DNA of 43,027 nucleotides from a virus: positions 1 to 43,027 of the IMG/VR virus record IMGVR_UViG_3300002461_000046, one strand, 5' to 3'. Position 1 is the first letter of the stretch. Each line of letters starts with the position of its first letter. The notes under the pieces were generated by a model. The model ran no database searches. It saw only the letters and a list, made by a program, of their open reading frames with translations, and had not been told where the DNA came from. Made by a program: the position numbers and the translations under genes. Below are positions 11,666 to 27,961 of the stretch, piece after piece.

Positions 11666-11929
11666 TTAGAGTGCGAACACTTCTGCGTAAGTCTTTTCCA
11701 TAATCTGTGGATCAAGACCATACATCTGTGGAGTAATAGTGCGTTTGACTTCTCCTAGTACCCACAACTCCATAACCTCAGCTACAGAATTATGCCGCCA
11801 GCCTGAAAACTTCTTCTTCTTAAGTTCTGAGGAAGTTGCAAAGTCGTTATGATCGCTGCGCTTATAGTGCTCAGTCAGTGCGTTACGATCAAACTTCTGA
11901 TAGGAACTACGCTCGTTTGAATTTGCCAT
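11666..11929 (-). CDS. Hypothetical protein, 87 aa
   Basis: ORF with AAAGG upstream of the ATG. Last gene of the minus arm. Confidence 0.7.
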   Translation of the reverse strand: MANSNERSSYQKFDRNALTEHYKRSDHNDFATSSELKKKKFSGWRHNSVAEVMELWVLGEVKRTITPQMYGLDPQIMEKTYAEVFAL

Positions 11930-12401
11930 AGCTGCCTTTCAAAATAGCTTTGAGATTCTTTCTAGACTTCTCATCAGGAGAGATACCATAAGCAGATAGG
12001 CCAAACTCCACATCAGCGAAGAATGCTTCAAATTTTCTATCTTCACAGACTATCCTATCTACTCTCTCACGAATAATGTGAAAGTCTTTCTGCATTTGTT
12101 CAGGCAAAGTAGCAAGCACTGCAATAGGAATTCTGTAATGCGCGTTCTCAGAATTCATTGGATGCTTAGGATCTTCTGGCTTAATCAAGTTACCTTCTTC
12201 TTTATGTCCACTCCAAGGAAACCAACCACTGTTTATGTTCCAATAGCCTCCTTGCTTTGTTTTGAAAGAAACAGCATTCCAAGGTACGCAGCCATTAGTA
12301 GCTACTTGCCAAGTACCCCCTTCCTCGGTGGCATAGTGGGTTACTTCATCTGTGGTATAACGAAGAGTCTTTAAGACTTCGTCTAAATTATAAACGCCCA
12401 T
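11907..12401 (-). CDS. Hypothetical protein, 164 aa. Start moved to MGVYNLDEV.
   Basis: The tracked ORF 11907..12515 overlaps the DHH gene. The internal ATG at 12401 is preceded by AAGGAAGAGAG and lies just downstream of the DHH stop. Confidence 0.65.
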   Translation of the reverse strand: MGVYNLDEVLKTLRYTTDEVTHYATEEGGTWQVATNGCVPWNAVSFKTKQGGYWNINSGWFPWSGHKEEGNLIKPEDPKHPMNSENAHYRIPIAVLATLPEQMQKDFHIIRERVDRIVCEDRKFEAFFADVEFGLSAYGISPDEKSRKNLKAILKGSYGKFKRA

Positions 12402-12447
12402 ACTCTCTTCCTTTCTTTGATACTTGGTTTGAAAAGCAAGCCTATGT

Positions 12448-13464
12448 TTAAGACTTCGCCAAAGGGTGGTCCCTGGGGACTCTGAATCCTGCTGCATGTT
12501 TATGTCCTCCTCCATTGTAGTATTTAGCTATCTCAGAAACATCCATGCCATTATCACAACTGCGCAAGCTAAAGATACGATGGGTTGCAGTATCCCAATA
12601 GCAAGCAGCAAATTCCGTCCCTTCTTTGTGAGCTGCTGCCATTGCGTGGCCAGCATCGGAAGTAAAAGTGTAAGGCAAACTAGCAGCAGGAACAGTAATA
12701 GTATCAGCGTACTTGTGACCAGCAGATTCGAATGGATCATCTCTAAGAATCGTGAAGTCCATGGGCCGTTGGCATACATTCAGAAGCTCCTTAATATCTT
12801 TGTGGTGCTTACGCTCAATGGCTGCACCAGCATTCCACATTCCAAGAAGCTCAGTAGCCGAAGCATTCATGAGCTTGTCCCAGTTCTCAAATGTATATTC
12901 ATAAGAGAATACGTTTGCTTGAATCTCACGAGTACCTGCTAGCTTAAACTTCCAGAGGTCACGATCTTGCACATGTTCCAGAAGTTTAGGCGGAACTTTG
13001 TAATAGGAACTATCTGAAGTAATGCAGTGCTCAAATGCTAAAGGATTGTCGCCAGCAAATTGAGTGTTATGCAAATAATCCCATGCAAGGATAGCACCAC
13101 TACGTTCTAGATCAGTGTACTTATAGAAGTTCTTATGGTTCAGTTCTGCAAGATCATCAATTGCAGTCTTATGGTGATCGATCAAAGTAATAGCCTGTGC
13201 TGTCTCCAGCATCTTCTCTACTACATCTCTTTTATAACTAAAATCAACAAGATAAACAATACGATCTGTAACATCTGGAGGCGGGTCATTATACACTCCC
13301 GGATGAAAGTCGAAGTCCATGCCCCAATCTGCCTGCACTTTCCAGAAGCACCATGCAGCTGAGAATCCATCAGCACAGTTAGCATGGTAGATTACGAGAG
13401 GATTCAAATTCTTAGGCTTCTCTAGCGGAAGCGCATTATCTAGGTTTACCATAAAGTCTGTCAT
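12448..13464 (-). CDS. DHH/DHHA1-family phosphoesterase (NrnA/RecJ-like), 338 aa
   Basis: Motifs in order: IYHANCADGFSAA (motif I), VYLVDFS (II), LIDHHKTA (DHH), GGGHKHAAGF (DHHA1 GGGH). AGGAG RBS. Confidence 0.85.
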   Translation of the reverse strand: MTDFMVNLDNALPLEKPKNLNPLVIYHANCADGFSAAWCFWKVQADWGMDFDFHPGVYNDPPPDVTDRIVYLVDFSYKRDVVEKMLETAQAITLIDHHKTAIDDLAELNHKNFYKYTDLERSGAILAWDYLHNTQFAGDNPLAFEHCITSDSSYYKVPPKLLEHVQDRDLWKFKLAGTREIQANVFSYEYTFENWDKLMNASATELLGMWNAGAAIERKHHKDIKELLNVCQRPMDFTILRDDPFESAGHKYADTITVPAASLPYTFTSDAGHAMAAAHKEGTEFAACYWDTATHRIFSLRSCDNGMDVSEIAKYYNGGGHKHAAGFRVPRDHPLAKS

Positions 13465-13488
13465 ATCAGCTCCTATTAGTTTCTAAAA

Positions 13489-13755
13489 TTAGTAATAAAC
13501 TACTTGCCAATCTTCTGCAAAAAGATCACCTTGACTGGGCGCCCAAGGCACGTAGCCTCCTTGAGCGTTTTTAATATATATATAAGGCTGGGTCATAAGC
13601 GAGTGCTCATCAGGTTCTTGCATAAGAACCCACTGACCTTTTCCATTCCAGCCAGCCCGCTGTAGCTTATGTCCTTCTTTAAGAAATACTAAAGCCTGCC
13701 CAAAATTAATACCCTGCACCTCTTCATCTACATGATCTATCGAACTATCATCCAT
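13489..13755 (-). CDS. DUF2829-family protein (the family that contains Thoeris anti-defence Tad2), 88 aa
   Basis: FGQALVFLKEGHKLQRAGWNGKG ... PYIYIKNAQGGYVPWAPSQGDLFAEDWQVV matches the remembered DUF2829 signature (GWNGKG, PW..SQ.DLLAEDW). TAATG junction with the upstream gene. Confidence 0.85.
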   Translation of the reverse strand: MDDSSIDHVDEEVQGINFGQALVFLKEGHKLQRAGWNGKGQWVLMQEPDEHSLMTQPYIYIKNAQGGYVPWAPSQGDLFAEDWQVVYY

Positions 13756-15014
13756 TATATCAGCTCCTGTTCAGTTAACCAACTATTATCAAGAAGATGC
13801 TCAGGCCATTCCTTCTTGGTCTTATGCATGGGCAAGTACCCACTCTTTCCGCCAACGCTAACAGCTTGTATCTTCTCAGAGTGTTTGAGGTTCTGAAGAA
13901 TGTCAACAAGCTCGGACATTTTACCAATGTCTCTACTAATCACACGAAACAATTCCCCCGGAGTCTGCGGCTTATGGCAGCCTGAGAGATAGCTGAGAAG
14001 CTTACCTGCTACAGAGGAATACTTAGAAGCACCAAACTCTCCCAATGCCCTAGGCATAACTCTCTCTGCTCGTGCTAGTAGGGAGTTAGCTCTCCTGATG
14101 TGAATAGGGAGAATCTTATCGGACATATCAAATACTGCAAGTAGCATAGATACTTTTAGCAAGTGAGTAAATCGTCGTTGCTGGTAGTGGATAAAACGTG
14201 GGTCATCTACTGGAATCTCGTTATCATAAATCTCCTTGCCAATAGCTTTGGCTTCTTTGGTTACAACAATCTCTCCACTGATAGCATCTCTTACTTCGAT
14301 CATCCTGTTAACTAGCGTGGCTTGCAATAGCGGGTCAGGTGCAGTAGGCCATGCAACTTTGTTAGAAGTAGGATCAGCATGAAGCAACACAACACGAGAG
14401 AGGAAGCCATTGCCTAGAGCTTCTGGTGGAAAGGCTAGTGCAAATCCATCAGGAGTGTTAGCCCCTAGCAAGTTAACAGTAGGCTTGTGGACCATCACAC
14501 TCTTGCCCTGAATCTTAGGATGTGTGTATTCTCCTAAGTTATCCCAGAGATTAGTCAGCAGCGTAATGAAGTCCATGTTACCTTGGCCAATAAAGTCTGT
14601 GAACTCTCCTGACATGATGTAAGATTCTGAGGGATCACCGAAAGCTAGGTCCTCTACATCCTCAAGAGCCGCGTTCGTAGGCAGATCAAACTGTTTCATG
14701 TCCATAAGGAAGCGCTCTTTAGAAGTCTTGTCCGCTGAGAATCTATTGAACCCTGTAGCTTTTAGAAGTCTCCTGCCAATGGCCATAGCAGCACCCTTAC
14801 GAGTACCAGGTGAGCCCATCAGCATGATGTATTGGTTAGGATATATTGGCCCAATACCAAAGTCTATCCATACCTTGCGCCCCATATAAGCACCAAGAAT
14901 ACTAAGACACACCCATCTATGATAGATAGCTGGCGCCTCAGAATTATCCAGATCGCAAAGACGCATGTAAGAACTAATAAAGTCATCTTGAATCCTGATA
15001 GGGTTGTGCGTCAT
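13755..15014 (-). CDS. P-loop ATPase, putative VirE/D5-like (SF3-type) replicative helicase, 419 aa
   Basis: Walker A-like LMGSPGTRKGA and hydrophobic-D VVLLHAD. ATGA overlap with the DNA polymerase stop. The position is typical of the helicase/primase partner in PolA modules. Confidence 0.5.
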   Translation of the reverse strand: MTHNPIRIQDDFISSYMRLCDLDNSEAPAIYHRWVCLSILGAYMGRKVWIDFGIGPIYPNQYIMLMGSPGTRKGAAMAIGRRLLKATGFNRFSADKTSKERFLMDMKQFDLPTNAALEDVEDLAFGDPSESYIMSGEFTDFIGQGNMDFITLLTNLWDNLGEYTHPKIQGKSVMVHKPTVNLLGANTPDGFALAFPPEALGNGFLSRVVLLHADPTSNKVAWPTAPDPLLQATLVNRMIEVRDAISGEIVVTKEAKAIGKEIYDNEIPVDDPRFIHYQQRRFTHLLKVSMLLAVFDMSDKILPIHIRRANSLLARAERVMPRALGEFGASKYSSVAGKLLSYLSGCHKPQTPGELFRVISRDIGKMSELVDILQNLKHSEKIQAVSVGGKSGYLPMHKTKKEWPEHLLDNSWLTEQELI

Positions 15015-17305
15015 TTCAGCCCTTTGTATTTCCTAGTTCCGTTAGGGTTAGACTCATCTGCCTCGCCCCAATTCTGTCCATACTTAATGTCAATAGGAAT
15101 GACTAGAGTACGTCCATGAATCTTGACGGGATTATACATACAGTCTGCGAGCCTTCTTGCGAACTCATCCCTCCTATTGATCCGCCATTGTCCAAAGATA
15201 CTGTCATGGATTTGAGCTTTGATTCGAAAGTCTCCATCACTTGGTAGAACAATGTCTCTGTAGGCTCTAACGAATCCTCTGTTGAGAATCTCGACGCTGA
15301 GCTGCTGCGGCTGGTGTGCAACTGCCCCTCTAAGCATACTGTGGTTACGGTCAATATCTCCAAAGAATCTCCTTGTATGTCCAAGTGGACTGACAAGGTA
15401 GCTTGTTGATTTGATCTCATTCTTAATCTCCTGATACCACATACGAACACGAGGGAAAGGACTATGATAAAGATCAAGAAGCTCTTTGGCAAAACCTTTG
15501 AGCGTTCGTTGATTCTTATTGTTAGCCTTGACAATATCTACAATCTCCAAGCCTAGCTTGGCAGCAGTCTGATACAGAATCCTTGCGCCGATGTTCTCAA
15601 TGAAAGTTCCTGCGCCCATCATGTAGTTGGTGCCGTGGACAATCTTCTTGAGCACCTTGTTCCTAAAGAAGTCATCAACCTCTTCATAAGGCATACGAAA
15701 GAACAAGGTTCCTAGCGTACGATAGAAGTCTTTCTCTGCATCTTCAAGCGCCGCGATGAGAGCTTCTTCCTGAGAGCAGTAGGCAGTGGTCCTTCCTTCA
15801 GACTGCTTGTTATCTGCTTCGAAGATTTCAAATCCTTCATCAGCAATGAGCATTGGTTTAGCATATCCCGGAATATTCTGGACTTGCGTTCCAACCCACA
15901 AACTAGAAGCTGAACATGCCATCCTGCTAGTGTCTGTTCCGAATGGATTAAGCGCCCAGAGAAGGCGGCCTCTCCATTGCAAGAAATCATAATAGGTCCC
16001 AATGGCCTTCTGACTACCACGATACTCCAAGATTTCTTCGCAAATACGTGCAAGCAAGGGGTGCTGCTCAGAGACAGCTTTAAGGTTCTTCTCATCCGTA
16101 CCTGACTTACTCTTTCCAATCTTTGGCTTCTTCGCACCGAATACATCGTAGACATACTTCTCTACCTGCTGCCAGCTACCTGGATTAAAGTTAGGGTCTG
16201 CAAACATTGTCTGCAAACGATTCATTGCTTCTTGCAAACGAATATCAGCTGCGGTTCTGAGTTCTACTCGCTTCTCTTGATCTATCTTGATTCCTTCGAA
16301 GTTAGAGTAGAGCGAGGGATAGACAAGAGGGAACTGCTTCTTGTAGTTGGTGAACGTATAAGCCTGCGACTTACGCAGTTGCTCGATCAGAATCCTTGCA
16401 GTGTACCAAGTATCCTTAGCGTTGTATGCCCAATACTTCTCTTGGTCTTTCTTCTTAGCGGCCTGCTCTGCATCATCCTTCCAGAATACGTAATCGTACA
16501 GGGTGTATGATGCTACGAAATCAAGGCTCTTAGGCAATTCAGAATACTCTGAGTGCGCCAAGTACATGGTGTCGAGAGTGTAATGATGCGGCTCGCAGTG
16601 GTAGCGGATCAAGTGCGTAGCATCATACATGCCATTGTGCATAGCCTTGGCAATAGACAGAGCATTGGCAGAGCGCATGAACTTGATGGCTGCAATATAG
16701 TCTCTGTCATCAGGCCAATGGTCACCATCATAATCAATGAGAGGCAGGACATAGGTCTTGAGCGTGCCGTCAGCATATACTCCAGTCCAGCCTGCGCAAG
16801 TGATAAGCGTAGGTCCACCCTCCAGCTCCGTAGGTCCGGGCAGAGTCTTAGTCTCAATGTCATGAGAGATAACAATAGCTTGTGAGAGTTCTTCTAGAAC
16901 AGAAGCCATTGCATAGCGGTCAAGAATCTTCTTGTAGGAAAAGGGCGTAGGTTTCCTATAGATGCTCTTGAGCTTAGTAAGGTCGCGCTCTAGCAGCCAG
17001 TCACCATGAGGTACTGTGTGCATATGAGCCAGCTTGTTGATAATGATAGTAGGCAATTCAAAGTTGAGCCTAGTACCACGCCATTTATCTACAGTAGGTG
17101 CTTCCCCCGGCACCAAGTAGCGAAGAGTCTGTTCGTTGTTGCAGACAATAGCAGAGCAGCCAGCCAGCTTAGCCTTGTGCATCAGTTCGCCAATAGTCAG
17201 GTTCATAGAACTAGACACTGCGTCAATGCCAAGACGACGGAACATATAGGCTATGCCACCAAGATAATCCTTCTCGGATTTTTCGTAGTTCAGGAGAACT
17301 CGCAT
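15011..17305 (-). CDS. Family A DNA polymerase with 3'-5' exonuclease domain, 764 aa
   Basis: Exo I-like SHDIETKT. Motif B-like KKIVHGTNYMMGAG. Motif C KAQIHDSI. Size and domain order fit PolA. AAGGAAG RBS. Confidence 0.9.
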   Translation of the reverse strand: MRVLLNYEKSEKDYLGGIAYMFRRLGIDAVSSSMNLTIGELMHKAKLAGCSAIVCNNEQTLRYLVPGEAPTVDKWRGTRLNFELPTIIINKLAHMHTVPHGDWLLERDLTKLKSIYRKPTPFSYKKILDRYAMASVLEELSQAIVISHDIETKTLPGPTELEGGPTLITCAGWTGVYADGTLKTYVLPLIDYDGDHWPDDRDYIAAIKFMRSANALSIAKAMHNGMYDATHLIRYHCEPHHYTLDTMYLAHSEYSELPKSLDFVASYTLYDYVFWKDDAEQAAKKKDQEKYWAYNAKDTWYTARILIEQLRKSQAYTFTNYKKQFPLVYPSLYSNFEGIKIDQEKRVELRTAADIRLQEAMNRLQTMFADPNFNPGSWQQVEKYVYDVFGAKKPKIGKSKSGTDEKNLKAVSEQHPLLARICEEILEYRGSQKAIGTYYDFLQWRGRLLWALNPFGTDTSRMACSASSLWVGTQVQNIPGYAKPMLIADEGFEIFEADNKQSEGRTTAYCSQEEALIAALEDAEKDFYRTLGTLFFRMPYEEVDDFFRNKVLKKIVHGTNYMMGAGTFIENIGARILYQTAAKLGLEIVDIVKANNKNQRTLKGFAKELLDLYHSPFPRVRMWYQEIKNEIKSTSYLVSPLGHTRRFFGDIDRNHSMLRGAVAHQPQQLSVEILNRGFVRAYRDIVLPSDGDFRIKAQIHDSIFGQWRINRRDEFARRLADCMYNPVKIHGRTLVIPIDIKYGQNWGEADESNPNGTRKYKGLK

Positions 17306-18859: not shown

Positions 18860-19157
18860 CTTGTTGCATCCTTTTTAGAATAGCTTCGTTCTGAAAACGA
18901 AACAGTGTTTTAATGTCAGCTTCCATCTTTAGCAGGTCAAACTTGATGGGATCAAGCGCATTCAAAATGGTAGCTATCTGTAGAGATACTGCTCGGCCTT
19001 CGTGTCCCATCTGCCCTAGATTGATAACACTCATGCAACTTGCAATAGCTTTAGCATAAAGGTCACCCTCTCTGGCAACAAAACCTTCTAGCACCTCTAC
19101 CATAGTATTCTCGAAGTGAGAATCAGGATCAGGATTATCAGCATTAAGGAGTGTCAT
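18840..19157 (-). CDS. Hypothetical protein, 105 aa
   Basis: ORF overlapping both neighbours by 14-20 nt, which suggests translational coupling. Confidence 0.65.
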   Translation of the reverse strand: MTLLNADNPDPDSHFENTMVEVLEGFVAREGDLYAKAIASCMSVINLGQMGHEGRAVSLQIATILNALDPIKFDLLKMEADIKTLFRFQNEAILKRMQQDGPSST

Positions 19158-19653
19158 CTTTATTCTCAGGCAGCAGGCTAATCAGCAGCTCACGAATCTT
19201 AGGCTCTGGCTTCCAGTAGTTAGGACCCTTCATGAACTTACCCTGCTCATTGTAGATAGGCTTACCATCTGCACCGAGCTTGGACTCATTGCTTTTCATA
19301 ATGATTTCTAAGACCTCAGAATTGGGAATACCGAAGCGAGCCATCTCAGAAGCACAGTAGACTTGAATGTCCCCGAGAAGATCAGCTATCTCTACCAATG
19401 CATCCATAGTAGAACACTCTGCATCTAGCTTATCAATGATAGCCTTATGCTCGTCTAGCTCGTCTTTAAGGATACCTCCGAAGAAATCCTGCAGGCGCTT
19501 CATTACAAGCTCGATGCCTTCTCTAGATTGATAAGCAGGGAAGGTTTTAACTTGCCACTTAATCTCTTCTTGAAAGCTGGGAGTGGCTGCAATAGGCAAG
19601 TTATACATGGCGTTCATGCCAAGGATTGCCAACTCAAAATTAAACTTTCTCAT
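19144..19653 (-). CDS. MazG-like all-alpha NTP pyrophosphohydrolase, 169 aa
   Basis: Acidic metal-binding helices ELDEHKAIIDKLD ... DALVEIADLLGDIQVY, then MKSNESKLGADGKP...GKFMKGPNYWKPEP, typical of phage MazG/COG4696-type proteins. Confidence 0.65.
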   Translation of the reverse strand: MRKFNFELAILGMNAMYNLPIAATPSFQEEIKWQVKTFPAYQSREGIELVMKRLQDFFGGILKDELDEHKAIIDKLDAECSTMDALVEIADLLGDIQVYCASEMARFGIPNSEVLEIIMKSNESKLGADGKPIYNEQGKFMKGPNYWKPEPKIRELLISLLPENKDDTP

Positions 19654-21060: not shown

Positions 21061-21552
21061 TTAGCCTCGTGGATCTACCAATGCACCCGGCAAAGCTTTG
21101 CCAGCAGCGCGTTCATCTTGCAGCATAGAAAAGCAAGCAGCATATCCAGCCACGTCCATAATAGAATCGAAGTGGTCAGGAGACTTGGCCAGACGAGCCA
21201 GCTTGACTTGCATCATGAGCATTGCAACATCTTCTGGAGTGATACGAGCCTGAGCTTGAAGCTTCATAGCAAGGACACCTTGGAACAGCATAGCAATCTG
21301 CGTGAAGTTCTGGAGCTTGTCACCGTAGTCTGATTGACGAGCACCTTGGACAAGCTCTTGCGCACGATGCAGCATGGGAACTTTAGGAGCTTCTGCATAA
21401 CCTTGCTCTGGCTGCTTTGGCATAACACCGTAGATAGCAGCCAAGACAGGGGCAAAGTTCTCAGTAGGATTCAAGGTAATCCAGTTAGCAAACATTGCAA
21501 TAGTCTGCGCATTGCTGAGAGTCTGGGTACGAGGCTTAACAGTTTTGGCCAT
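21061..21552 (-). CDS. Conserved phage protein, DUF6378-like C-terminal domain, 163 aa. Function unknown.
   Basis: GARQSDYGD..NF..IA ... MMQVKLARL ... DSIMDVAGYA resembles the remembered DUF6378 pattern. Assignment is tentative. Confidence 0.45.
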   Translation of the reverse strand: MAKTVKPRTQTLSNAQTIAMFANWITLNPTENFAPVLAAIYGVMPKQPEQGYAEAPKVPMLHRAQELVQGARQSDYGDKLQNFTQIAMLFQGVLAMKLQAQARITPEDVAMLMMQVKLARLAKSPDHFDSIMDVAGYAACFSMLQDERAAGKALPGALVDPRG

Positions 21553-25599: not shown

Positions 25600-27552
25600 C
25601 TAAGCCGAAGGCTTAGTGCAGGTAACAGAGATAGTATCATTGATACCAGAGTTAAAGAAAGCCAGCTTATCTTTGAGCGTGTTGCCTTTGATGCGCTGGT
25701 TGGCAATAGCCTGATCTACGATGTAGTCTTTAGAGATAACAACTACCTTAGTCCTGGCCCTTGTTTCTGCTGTATAAAACAGTTCTCGGAACAGCATGAT
25801 TGCATGATCTTTGTGAAGCAGAATAAAGACCTTGCGCCATTCAGAGCCCTGCGCCTTGTGAACAGTAAGGCAATAGCCTAGAGTAAAAGAAGCCTCAGAG
25901 AAATCTCCTGCTGCTGTAACTTCTTCTTCCATGCCATCACCGTAGTCGATAACTACAGAGTGAGAAGCTTGCTGTTTGCGTTCTCCTTTTTCATCTTCTA
26001 GAGCTTCGAGACTGAAGTTAGAATAATCAAGCTCACCAGCCATATCATCAAAGTCAAGGTCAGAATCCACACCGAGAATACGAGTCCCGAAGCGGCTAAG
26101 ATCTTTGCCCGGAAGCTGCGGTTCTTTGCCATGATATTGTAGGTTCCTGTTGATGCTTTTAATGATGCCATCCCTTTTGTTGAACATGACCTTATCACCT
26201 TCTGCAAGGTAGAGCTTGTTAAAGCCTGCAATAATCTCATGGACAACTGCACCCCGCTTCTCTCCAACAAACTGTGCAATCCACTTGTTCATTGCATTAG
26301 TTCCAAGGTGCAGATCAGACTTCTCTCCGCGTCCACCCTGTTTGTTGAAGGGGCTAAGAACCATGTCATTCTCAATATCGTACTCTGGAAGCCCATCATC
26401 GCCAGTGGTTTCTGATAAGACTTTGAGCATGTTAGTAACCACAGAGCACATCTTAGACTGGCCAAGCTGCGTAGGATTCTTGCCACGGACAATGTGGAAG
26501 TCTTTATCTTCTACCAGCTTGCGGCCATTAAGAATGTGGTGAGCATTCTCAAGAACAATCCCTTGGTTCCTGTAAACCTCAGTCAGTTCTACGATAGGAA
26601 GCTGAGTCAAGGCATAGTTCAGAATAGAAGGACCAAAGACAGGCGGCAGCTGGTTAATATCGCCAACAAAGATAATCTGCACATCATACGGCAGAGCTTC
26701 ATAGAGCTTGTCCCACAGATCAAGGCCGAGCATAGAAGCTTCTTCGATAACCAAGTGGGTAATGGTCAGAGGATTCTCAGCATTGCGAGTAGGAGCAAAG
26801 CGGAACTTCTCTTTCATTTCCACAGAATCCCAATAGGTCTCTGGCCGATACTCTAGGAGAGCATGGATGGTCATGATGTTGTACTGAAGCTTCTCTGCAA
26901 GAATTGGGTCCTTATGAATTGCTTTCCTCATGTTAGATGCAGCCCTGCGAGTGTAGGCTACGAAGGCAATAGAAGGAGCCTCTTTCATAGAAGAGAAACC
27001 AGTGGTGATATCCGTATGCTTATAGCTAGACATTTCCAAGCGGCCATCTTCTAGAAGTGCGCCAGCTACTGCACGCTGCGCTGTAGTCTTACCTGTGCCA
27101 GCAGGACCAATAAGACAGAAGCTCTTACCTTGGAATGCGAAGTCCTTAGCTACAAGCTGCTTCTCATTAAGAACAATGTTCAGAGAGAAGGATTCTTGGA
27201 TGCCCTTAGACAGCTCTGTGCGCTCAAACTCTTCTTCTGAGACAGGCTCAGGAGCCATTTCTTCTGCGGCTGCTTGCTCTGCTAGTTTCTTCAGCTTAAG
27301 CTTTTCGAGGAAGCTTTTAGGGCCAGCACTTGCAGCTTCTACATGCCGAGCAGTCTTTTCTGCTGCACGATCTTCTAGCTCCTGTTCAATAGAAGATTCA
27401 AAGACTGCAAGCTGCTGAGCTTCATTCAGGCCAGTCAGTTCTTCCTTGTGAAAAGAATTATCTTGACGCTTAGAAGCCAGTAGTTTAGCGACAATAGAAT
27501 TGCGCTGTTCGTTATGCTCAACGATGCGAGCGGAGAGTTTAGAGAGTGACAT
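25600..27552 (-). CDS. SF1B DNA helicase (RecD/Dda/Pif1-like), 650 aa, with about 140-aa charged N-terminal extension. Start moved to MSLSKLSAR.
   Basis: Walker A CLIGPAGTGKTT. IIFVGDINQLPPV. C-terminal TVHKAQGSEW. ATG 27552 overlaps the upstream kinase gene by 14 nt. Confidence 0.85.
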   Translation of the reverse strand: MSLSKLSARIVEHNEQRNSIVAKLLASKRQDNSFHKEELTGLNEAQQLAVFESSIEQELEDRAAEKTARHVEAASAGPKSFLEKLKLKKLAEQAAAEEMAPEPVSEEEFERTELSKGIQESFSLNIVLNEKQLVAKDFAFQGKSFCLIGPAGTGKTTAQRAVAGALLEDGRLEMSSYKHTDITTGFSSMKEAPSIAFVAYTRRAASNMRKAIHKDPILAEKLQYNIMTIHALLEYRPETYWDSVEMKEKFRFAPTRNAENPLTITHLVIEEASMLGLDLWDKLYEALPYDVQIIFVGDINQLPPVFGPSILNYALTQLPIVELTEVYRNQGIVLENAHHILNGRKLVEDKDFHIVRGKNPTQLGQSKMCSVVTNMLKVLSETTGDDGLPEYDIENDMVLSPFNKQGGRGEKSDLHLGTNAMNKWIAQFVGEKRGAVVHEIIAGFNKLYLAEGDKVMFNKRDGIIKSINRNLQYHGKEPQLPGKDLSRFGTRILGVDSDLDFDDMAGELDYSNFSLEALEDEKGERKQQASHSVVIDYGDGMEEEVTAAGDFSEASFTLGYCLTVHKAQGSEWRKVFILLHKDHAIMLFRELFYTAETRARTKVVVISKDYIVDQAIANQRIKGNTLKDKLAFFNSGINDTISVTCTKPSA

Positions 27553-27961
27553 TATAGTGTTCCCAAGATGCGGCCATACGTTTGACTGTTTCCTCTGGCA
27601 CATTGTGAATGCTACCAAAGAGATTTTTGCATTCTATGACTTGCACTGGAATATGCAAATCACGTGCCATGTTAAAATAAACTTCCATTTCCCAGAGCTT
27701 TACAAAGGTATTGGAGACGATAACAATATCACCTGCCTTCATAGCTTTCTCAGCTTTCATCTGGCACCAACGATGTGCAGCTTGAATCTTCTTGGCATCG
27801 TAAAGATAGCCTAGAGTTGATTCAAAGAATTGATCTGCTTCAGCTATCGTAACTGAGCGCCGGTTACTATCATTCAACATGTAGCTATCGGCCAAGCTTT
27901 CAGCTAATGTGCTTTTACCAGAGCCCGGCAGTCCGCGAATGAGAATAAGAGATTGTTTCAT
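27539..27961 (-). CDS. P-loop kinase-like NTPase (AAA_33 / polynucleotide-kinase-like), 140 aa
   Basis: LILIRGLPGSGKSTLA Walker A, IVIVSNT Walker B-like strand, HNVPEETVKRM..WE tail. AAGGA RBS. Confidence 0.7.
   Translation of the reverse strand: MKQSLILIRGLPGSGKSTLAESLADSYMLNDSNRRSVTIAEADQFFESTLGYLYDAKKIQAAHRWCQMKAEKAMKAGDIVIVSNTFVKLWEMEVYFNMARDLHIPVQVIECKNLFGSIHNVPEETVKRMAASWEHYNVTL

Follow-up and report, generated by a model that had tools for sequence, protein, structure and literature searches.

In cells, the DEDDh enzyme Orn is replaced by the DHH enzymes NrnA and NrnB, and the RxRxR sequence in the DHHA1 domain of NrnA is its substrate and 5'-phosphate-binding motif (PMC9779919). In phages, DHH phosphodiesterases have been proposed to counter the signals of SMODS and type III CRISPR systems (Iyer et al., 2021; PMC7824862). 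Here we analyze a phage gene for a 338-residue DHH/DHHA1 phosphoesterase (positions 12448..13464, minus strand) in a 43,027-nucleotide stretch of viral DNA, IMG/VR virus record IMGVR_UViG_3300002461_000046 (the whole stretch is referred to as the window), which appears to be the complete, circularly permuted ~43 kb genome of a freshwater relative of Polaromonas phage Tiera. The reading that we tentatively favor, with confidence falling a little short of even, is that the protein would be an exonuclease for short oligonucleotides and primer remnants, serving replication and nucleotide recycling. What we propose about its substrate, polarity, metal and physiological role is deduced from the fold, key residues, operon position, phyletic pattern and gene neighbors. 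A sequence-only reading of the same DNA had called the gene NrnA-like and had offered it as a candidate degrader of nucleotide immune signals or, alternatively, as a RecJ-like nuclease.

The open reading frame (ORF), equipped with a strong ribosome-binding site (Shine-Dalgarno AGGAG at 13470..13474, 5 nt 5' of the ATG at 13464), is by all sequence indications a real gene; this and all other genes and motifs of the window located below lie on the minus strand. The ORF, a PHROG match, an AlphaFold2 (AF2) model and Foldseek searches of PDB and BFVD place its product in a viral clade with the signature HxxCxDG (PHROG 4771). The AF2 model, built on 68 homologues, is confident (predicted local distance difference test, pLDDT, 91.8; predicted template modeling score, pTM, 0.80) and displays two domains, DHH and DHHA1, connected by a linker, which agrees with the earlier statement that the protein lacks the extra domains of RecJ. 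More than 50 DHH/DHHA1 structures in PDB were matched by Foldseek at probability 1.00. The top matches are Msm NrnA, TmPDE, an H. pylori DHH protein, Rv2837c, PggH, the GdpP catalytic domain, DhhP and Pde2; these stand-alone enzymes, among whose substrates are pApA, pGpG, nanoRNA and pAp, are followed by archaeal RecJ/Cdc45 proteins, and the small-nucleotide enzymes also rank ahead of bacterial RecJ, in agreement with the earlier view that the protein is closer to them. Identities to the PDB structures are 11–17%, with template modeling (TM) scores of 0.3–0.5, the low values coming partly from the hinge between the domains.

Conservation was analyzed in an alignment of 328 family sequences and in a separate alignment of eight sequences that included distant jumbo-phage members. 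Essentially invariant residues are H27, C30, D32, G33, D74, D96-H97-H98, S122-G123-A124, D169, R301 and G318-G-G-H321. Motif I (H27-A-N-C30-A-D32-G33; 13366..13386) carries Cys in place of the first Asp of the canonical DxD and retains the second Asp (H-x-x-C-x-D-G); C30 is conserved in 325 of 326 aligned sequences, H27 and D32 in 325 each, and the Cys is unchanged also in phages EL, PaBG, AgentSmith and PhiEaH1. The Asp of motif II (D74; 13243..13245) and motif III (D96-H97-H98; 13171..13179, aligned with the DHH of PDB chains) are conserved in 328 of 328 sequences, as is, in 327 of 328, the invariant Asp D169 of the motif IV region (D167-R168-D169; 12958..12966), PaBG lacking D167 and retaining D169. 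In the DHHA1 domain, the basic stretch R296-I-F-S-L-R301 (R-x4-R; 12562..12579; R301 in 326 and R296 in 307 of the 328 sequences) aligns with HRWSVSMR of Rv2837c, and the GGGH motif (G318-H321; 12502..12513; about 100% conserved) with GGGH of DhhP, Rv2837c and SH1221. The statement that all DHH motifs are intact therefore holds for motifs II–IV and for GGGH, and does not hold for motif I, where Cys30 substitutes the first Asp. We know of no prior description of this invariant motif I Cys in the viral DHH clade.

As it precedes D32 by two residues and caps the N-terminus of helix 31–47, Cys30 should occupy the position of a metal-1 ligand, and metal site 1 is probably formed by this invariant Cys together with H27 and D74. 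An invariant Cys at this site would point to a softer metal (Zn, Fe or Co) in place of the Mn2+ used by canonical DHH enzymes. Further features of the modeled protein are a long, conserved, basic linker helix (residues 203–231, with R218, K219, H220 and K222 conserved), two variable beta-hairpin insertions (residues about 134–160 and 236–258) and a short, variable N-terminal segment of 22 residues with low model confidence. The confident fold and the conserved catalytic residues together argue, as had been anticipated, for a stand-alone DHH/DHHA1 enzyme that is probably active.

Against the profile PHROG 4771 ("DHH phosphoesterase"), the protein gives E=1.2e-92, whereas both Pfam matches are below the gathering thresholds (DHH, 16.7 vs. 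28.1 bits; DHHA1, 23.5 vs. 25.9 bits), and a profile search against PDB sequences yielded an alignment confined to the GGGH region and the DHH triad, with Borrelia DhhP (9R7O) as the best sequence match. By sequence and model, the protein belongs to the DHH/DHHA1 superfamily but falls outside NrnA, RecJ and GdpP. The label "NrnA-like" is not sustained: the NCBIfam NrnA equivalog NF053633 scores 18.4 bits against a cutoff of 350, matching only 27 residues around GGGH, and the sequence R296-I-F-S-L-R301-S stands where NrnA has RxRxR, its 5'-phosphate/substrate motif. RecJ was rejected on the NCBIfam RecJ_archaeal score (10.5 vs. 360 bits) and on size (338 residues, two domains only), and a membrane phosphodiesterase of the GdpP/MAD type because no transmembrane, PAS/GGDEF or membrane-anchor domain was detected with Pfam. 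Searches of PADLOC and NCBIfam with the DHH protein and with the neighboring gene products g202 and g87 returned no useful match, and ten longer family members contained no informative fused domain, only one marginal DUF2158.

The family is large. Homologues of the DHH protein form 6581 clusters at 90% identity; at 50% identity, 10177 representatives were found with E<=1e-3, 1260 of them with E<=1e-30. Among GenBank phage records, 99 contain homologues (23–56% identity), including Polaromonas phage Tiera (56% identity), temperate phages of Vibrio anguillarum, phiCbK-like Caulobacter phages and the jumbo phages EL, PaBG, RP12, PhiEaH1 and Noxifer. Only 276 relatives, mostly in Proteobacteria, were found among 185,579 species-representative genomes, and half of the longer loci there have markers of prophage early regions. 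The nearest predicted viral structures in BFVD include DHH proteins of Marseillevirus, Klosneuvirus, Pithovirus, Hokovirus and Lausannevirus, which, at 18–27% identity and TM scores of 0.6–0.73, are closer than any solved cellular structure. By this sequence evidence, members of the clade come almost exclusively from phages and prophages, among them small podophages, temperate phages and jumbo phages, and structural relatives are found in giant viruses; the predicted structures indicate that one viral DHH clade may span both phages and giant viruses.

Beyond the fold, the catalytic residues and an operon position that, in close relatives, comes directly after PolA and primase, four lines of evidence lead us to favor the short-nucleic-acid reading. 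One is the recurrence of RNase H, ligase, polymerase/primase and SbcCD neighbors of the DHH gene in very different phages. In 83 DHH loci from unrelated viral contigs, where the DHH gene alone resembles the window and retains 45–60% identity, recurrent neighbors from DNA metabolism include PolA, primases, a T7 gp4-like primase-helicase, ATP-dependent ligase, Sak4-like ATPase, SNF2 helicases, dNMP kinase and an HD 5'-nucleotidase-like gene. Genes annotated as RNase H (two PHROG families) are found near the DHH gene in at least five lineages: 26 nt upstream in EL (gp124, PHROG 531), in a stop/start overlap in L075 (PHROG 2259), about 110 nt downstream in L027, 1 kb downstream in CcrRogue, and about 2 kb upstream, beside an ATP-dependent ligase, in L026. 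In EL (L129, 137708-138946), NAD-ligase, a hypothetical gene, RNase H, DHH and RNA ligase stand in a row; the EL DHH protein has an N-terminal extension of about 120 residues. The DHH gene of PaBG (L130, 136552-137403) is flanked by SbcC and SbcD, that of AgentSmith is near SbcC, and the orders PolA-DHH-primase (L117, L121) and DHH-PolA-primase (L015, L024) are both observed. A second line is that the DHH gene swaps with a gene for a DEDDh exoribonuclease in related phages, echoing the cellular exchange of Orn and NrnA/NrnB. The third is a negative result: among the window ORFs covered by Pfam and PHROG scans, which leave out the structural arm, none showed a domain of RNase H, FEN or the PolA 5'-3' exonuclease. 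The fourth is the presence of structural relatives in giant viruses, which do not meet bacterial CBASS (cyclic-oligonucleotide-based antiphage signaling systems), Thoeris or CRISPR.

Under this reading the protein would be a metal-dependent DHH/DHHA1 phosphodiesterase/exonuclease that acts on short, end-bearing nucleic acids. Its substrates would be oligoribonucleotides and whatever primer fragments remain after the action of RNase H or primase, possibly also short single-stranded DNA (ssDNA), and its products mononucleotides; encoded last among the enzymes of the leftward replication operon, it would contribute to lagging-strand tidying and nucleotide recycling. It would thus represent a phage-borne counterpart of the cellular nanoRNases (NrnA/NrnB/Orn) rather than a defense-signal nuclease.

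The exchange of DHH and DEDDh genes emerged from a survey of 43 viral contigs that share the primase gene of the window. A variable slot, defined as the interval from the primase gene to g87 or to the big structural gene (related loci L086-L128), was analyzed for content in 36 loci. Carriers of DHH in this slot are the window, L086, L087, L088, L104, Tiera, L004, L007, L008 and L018, while an Rv2179c-like DEDDh 3'-5' exoribonuclease (PF16473, E=5.4e-40) occupies the slot of 21 loci. On a neighbor-joining tree of PolA, most loci of the clade of the window (clade A; 9 of the 12 with enough flank for scoring) have DHH; the gene is absent from the sister clade, clade B, every member of which, given enough sequence, has the DEDDh enzyme; no phage of the group on the PolA tree has both. 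Mutual exclusion as a strict general rule was nevertheless rejected, as both enzymes occur in L062. Other occupants of the slot are a dCTP-deaminase-like gene (12 loci), Tad2-like genes (six loci: the window, L093, L105 and L109-111), an RyR-domain gene (one locus, L104, 8848-9240) and, in addition to genes for HTH, HNH and DUF6378 proteins, several conserved orphans of small size (about 70 residues, 10 loci). RyR-domain phage proteins degrade or sequester cyclic ADP-ribose (cADPR) signals of Thoeris (PMC13232231). A linkage of RyR and DHH genes outside the clade of the window was considered and found to be loose only, with matches 1–5 kb away, one of them a 30-residue match. In L105, L109, L110 and L111 (e.g., L110, 8068-8589), the Tad2-like protein is 173 residues long, with an N-terminal extension of about 85 residues, and its gene directly follows that of the Rv2179c-like exonuclease, so that the sister clade, too, places a sponge-type gene next to that of a small exonuclease. 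In near relatives, the divergence of DHH exceeds that of PolA (e.g., in L087, PolA is 91%, primase 84% and DHH 65% identical). We conclude that DHH is an accessory gene carried in a cargo hot spot where the replication arm ends; its interpretation as a core replication gene was rejected, since many of the 43 primase-sharing loci are without it.

Several observations weigh against the short-oligonucleotide exonuclease. In the sequence available for three clade-A loci with enough flank (L090, L091 and L125), both DHH and the DEDDh enzyme are missing; DHH is thus not core, and its function must be either dispensable or supplied elsewhere. The coexistence of both enzymes in L062 is another discordant case. 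As the alternation follows phylogeny, it reflects only a few evolutionary events. Moreover, a choice between DHH and DEDD enzymes is also observed among those degrading the immune signal SAM-AMP (S-adenosylmethionine-AMP; PMC10600005), and the swap alone thus does not separate housekeeping from counter-defense. The "RNase H" labels are PHROG or GenBank annotations, not tests. In temperate phages, DHH is located among genes for methylases, ASCH and DUF2303 proteins, integrase and repressors, not replication genes; early-region neighbors there are integrase (14 loci), C5-methylase (11), ASCH (9), DUF2303 (8), cI-type repressor (7) and PrtN (7). Finally, the cargo hot spot itself also holds, by homology, two anti-Thoeris families, Tad2-like and RyR-domain.

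The Tad2-like gene of the window (DUF2829; 88 residues; 13489..13755) is directly upstream of DHH, confirming the neighbor named in the sequence-only reading. It matches PF11195 at E=1.9e-26 (92.9 bits vs. a 25-bit cutoff) and the solved structures of ModTad2, Tad2, SptTad2, SPO1 Gp34.65 and AcrIIA7 at E values from 2.5e-13 to 3.7e-10, which identifies it, at the sequence level, as a genuine member of the Tad2/DUF2829 family and likely as a recently acquired anti-Thoeris sponge. In the closest relative genome (L084/L085/L086), whose PolA and primase are 96% and DHH 83% identical to those of the window, the order (L084/L086) is PolA, primase, DHH and g87 in a row, the start of DHH overlapping the stop of the primase gene. 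A blastn comparison of the window with L084 revealed a 340-nt segment (13406..13745; the Tad2-like gene and the 5' end of DHH) in place of 55 nt in the relative, with 87% nucleotide identity on either side, and a 534-nt segment (11930..12463; orphan g202) in place of 17 nt. Because the closest relative lacks both segments, we regard them as recent insertions, one on each flank of DHH. No Tad2-like gene beside DHH was detectable in the flanks of 85 other DHH loci (L001-L085). The Tad2 context invoked for an anti-signal role is therefore in part retained, in that the slot is common with Tad2-like and RyR-domain genes, and in part weakened, as the adjacency itself is an insertion found only in the window.

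For the orphan g202, the mechanical ORF extends to 12515, while translation probably begins at the ATG at 12401 (11907..12401, 164 residues), with which an apparent 68-nt overlap with the DHH gene disappears; a homologue that begins with MNVYNLD supports the later start. Only three homologues of g202 were found in a database of 5.8 billion proteins, in addition to a 44% identical copy in L087; no family, PDB or defense-library match was obtained, and its AF2 model (pLDDT 56.7) is too poor for a fold search.

The principal alternative is that the DHH protein would be an anti-defense phosphodiesterase, which hydrolyzes a nucleotide immune signal or its linearized product and thereby blunts CBASS, type III CRISPR, Thoeris or a related system. 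Candidate substrates would be cyclic di- or oligonucleotides, pApA-type intermediates, SAM-AMP-like conjugates or molecules derived from ADP-ribose (ADPR), perhaps handled alongside the Tad2-like sponge; we consider this unlikely, yet deserving of serious attention. The top structural matches include known messenger cutters (GdpP, Pde2, Rv2837c and PggH), and in B. fragilis the DHH enzyme NrN specifically degrades SAM-AMP, the signal of the CorA type III CRISPR system, with a DEDD enzyme in other loci (PMC10600005), a replacement paralleled by the alternation of DHH and Rv2179c-like enzymes in these phages. The DEDDh alternative, however, requires a free 3' end and would be unable to open cyclic signals. 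Consistent with an anti-defense role are also the optional character of the gene at the end of the early/middle arm, in a slot common with Tad2-like and RyR-domain genes, the recent insertions of the Tad2-like gene and orphan g202 on both its flanks, its wide mobility among unrelated phages and prophages (45–60% identity where nothing else matches), its faster divergence than PolA (L087) and the anti-restriction-type methylases beside it in temperate-phage early regions. On the other hand, the slot also receives plain nucleotide-metabolism genes (dCTP-deaminase-like in 12 loci, DUF6378) as well as HNH and HTH genes, which makes location weak evidence; the DHH-Tad2 adjacency is unique to the window in comparison with the 85 other DHH loci; neighbors elsewhere are RNase H, ligases, PolA/primase and SbcCD; and structural relatives reside in giant viruses of eukaryotes. 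PADLOC provided no match, and Foldseek against PDB no likeness to the folds of Acb1, Apyc1 or AcrIII-1. The role was proposed for jumbo-phage DHH enzymes by Iyer et al. (2021; PMC7824862), so that the earlier claim of an undescribed function does not stand with respect to the idea; on the experimental side, our literature search found no characterized phage DHH enzyme, no experimental report and no test of the anti-signal proposal. A bolder extension, rather unlikely in our estimation, is that DHH and the Rv2179c-like DEDDh enzyme would be an interchangeable counter-defense pair destroying an end-bearing immune signal or a linearized intermediate, the distal part of the replication arm in this phage group then being an anti-signaling island that mixes sponges (Tad2, RyR) and nucleases; targets of such a pair could be SAM-AMP-type conjugates, linear oligoadenylates, pApA-type products or ADPR-derived products released from Tad2/RyR action.

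The remaining alternatives stay closer to nucleic acid metabolism. The RecJ-like nuclease of the sequence-only reading is still viable, if improbable, in the form of an ssDNA exonuclease resecting 5' ends or flaps for recombination, repair or replication restart, with the Sak4-like annealase, the SSB-like DUF669 protein and the PD-(D/E)XK exonuclease of its operon as partners. Structural matches to archaeal RecJ, RecJ2 and RecJ-Cdc45/GAN are significant (E from 1e-7 to 1e-6) but are outranked by small-substrate enzymes, and the NCBIfam archaeal RecJ model is matched at 10.5 vs. 360 bits. The location within a recombination/replication operon fits, as do the gene order SbcC-DHH-SbcD of PaBG, the nearby SbcC gene of AgentSmith, the modeled basic linker helix (203–231), which could bind a nucleic-acid backbone, and the annotation of several GenBank homologues as "single-stranded-DNA-specific exonuclease"; yet the operon already has a PD-(D/E)XK recombination exonuclease, the OB-fold and extra domains that confer processivity on RecJ are not present, and the enzyme that fills the slot in clade B instead bears an exoribonuclease annotation. 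A nucleotide or RNA-end phosphatase, which would remove a 3'-phosphate or 2',3'-cyclic phosphate, acting on pAp or healing RNA ends for an RNA ligase, or would split pyrophosphate/polyphosphate in the manner of DHH subfamily 2, appears highly improbable. It draws on the bifunctionality of NrnA as oligoribonuclease and pAp phosphatase (PMC9779919), on an archaeal PAP phosphatase among the structural matches, on "exopolyphosphatase" annotations of some Bacillus phage relatives, on the RNA ligase gene that follows DHH in EL (an adjacency of one lineage only) and on weak hidden Markov model matches to family II pyrophosphatases around motifs II–III, which are non-significant (E 0.075–0.85); the conserved GGGH and R301 are, moreover, typical of nucleotide/oligonucleotide binders. 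A non-catalytic, Cdc45-like replisome cofactor of the DUF3987 helicase/primase is scarcely credible: translational coupling to the primase/helicase gene in relatives and the RecJ-Cdc45/GAN proteins among the structural matches would agree with it, but the catalytic ligands are invariant across the family, unlike those of eukaryotic Cdc45, many phages with the same helicase lack DHH, and temperate phages with DHH lack such a helicase.

The genome setting of the DHH gene agrees with the position at the distal end of the early/middle arm assigned to it earlier, as it is near the 3' end of a leftward replication arm, within a run of co-directional genes. This arm comprises genes for a Dda-like helicase, DUF6378, PD-(D/E)XK exonuclease, MazG-like protein, Sak4-like AAA_24 ATPase, DUF669, family-A DNA polymerase, DUF3987 "primase", Tad2-like protein, DHH, g202 and g87, and converges on a structural gene of 1766 codons. 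The DUF3987 "primase"/helicase-like gene (13755..15014; PF13148, E=2.6e-9; PHROG 14296, E=1e-86) forms the near edge of the variable slot, and g87 (11666..11929), a small conserved gene that closes the arm and has homologues in 25 of the 36 loci analyzed for slot content, the far edge. The family A DNA polymerase (15011..17305; PHROG 17) matches PF00476 at E=1.8e-31 over residues 349–748 only, and no 5'-3' exonuclease domain was detected in it by Pfam and PHROG scans. The nucleotide-handling genes of the arm include those for a MazG-like nucleotide pyrophosphohydrolase (PHROG 671; 19144-19653), a DUF6378 protein (21061-21552) and an AAA_33 P-loop kinase-like protein of 140 residues (27539-27961). 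A scan for promoters and terminators around the DHH gene gave matches no more numerous than in shuffled sequence. The same DHH protein is also on record in the NCBI whole-genome shotgun set LNFM01, and several relatives are binned in bacterial or archaeal metagenome-assembled genomes (Babeliales, Nitrososphaera, Sterolibacterium), probably through mis-binning of phage contigs.

Overall, the features most worthy of experiment are the invariant metal-site Cys, the DHH/DEDDh alternation and the cargo slot of sponges, nucleases and orphans, the latter being a promising place to seek new counter-defense or host-takeover genes. If the protein is a phage nanoRNase or primer-clearing nuclease, phage DNA replication and nucleotide recycling would gain a step of wide occurrence, and the choice between DHH and DEDDh in sister phages would be explained. 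If it destroys an immune signal, it would represent a new class of anti-defense enzyme, and the counter-defense pair, if true, would provide the first DHH-family phage anti-defense enzyme and a function for thousands of phage genes.

A comparison with known systems places the protein as follows. With NrnA/NrnB-type enzymes (Msm NrnA, 4LS9; TmPDE, 5O25; Rv2837c/CnpB, 5CET; PggH, 7D62; Pde2, 8IU7; DhhP, 9R7O) it has in common the two domains, a length of ~320–340 residues, motifs II–IV and GGGH; it differs in the Cys of motif I and in R-x4-R, with 11–17% identity and TM scores of 0.31–0.49, and it belongs to a phage-borne family, whereas NrnA/NrnB are cellular housekeeping enzymes. RecJ and archaeal RecJ/Cdc45 (GAN) are similar in the DHH/DHHA1 core, in their association with replication/repair genes and in significant structural matches, but the window protein is much smaller and is without OB-fold, CID or extra domains. 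GdpP (acting on cyclic di-AMP), Sulfolobus MAD (cyclic tetra-adenylate, cA4) and B. fragilis NrN (SAM-AMP) are alike in superfamily chemistry; they are host-encoded regulators, GdpP and MAD carry membrane or sensor domains that the window protein lacks, and the B. fragilis Nrn structure (3W5W), at rank 47 in Foldseek with a TM score of 0.39, is not especially close to it. Acb1, Apyc1, AcrIII-1, Tad1/Tad2 and RyDEP resemble it as accessory genes of an early/middle arm, and the slot is common with Tad2-like and RyR-domain genes; their folds, however, are unrelated to DHH, and most other phages carry DHH in replication/repair contexts. The closest likeness is to the other phage DHH proteins of PHROG 4771 (Tiera gp027, EL gp125, phiCbK/CcrRogue gp062 and those of V. 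anguillarum H20-like prophages), which share with the window protein the signature HxxCxDG, VDFS, DHH, SGA, DRDLW, SLRS and GGGH. There is no essential difference between them and the window copy, which is distinguished by insertions on both flanks of the gene and by the two variable beta-hairpin insertions in the protein, and is one more member of an already annotated phage family rather than a new kind.

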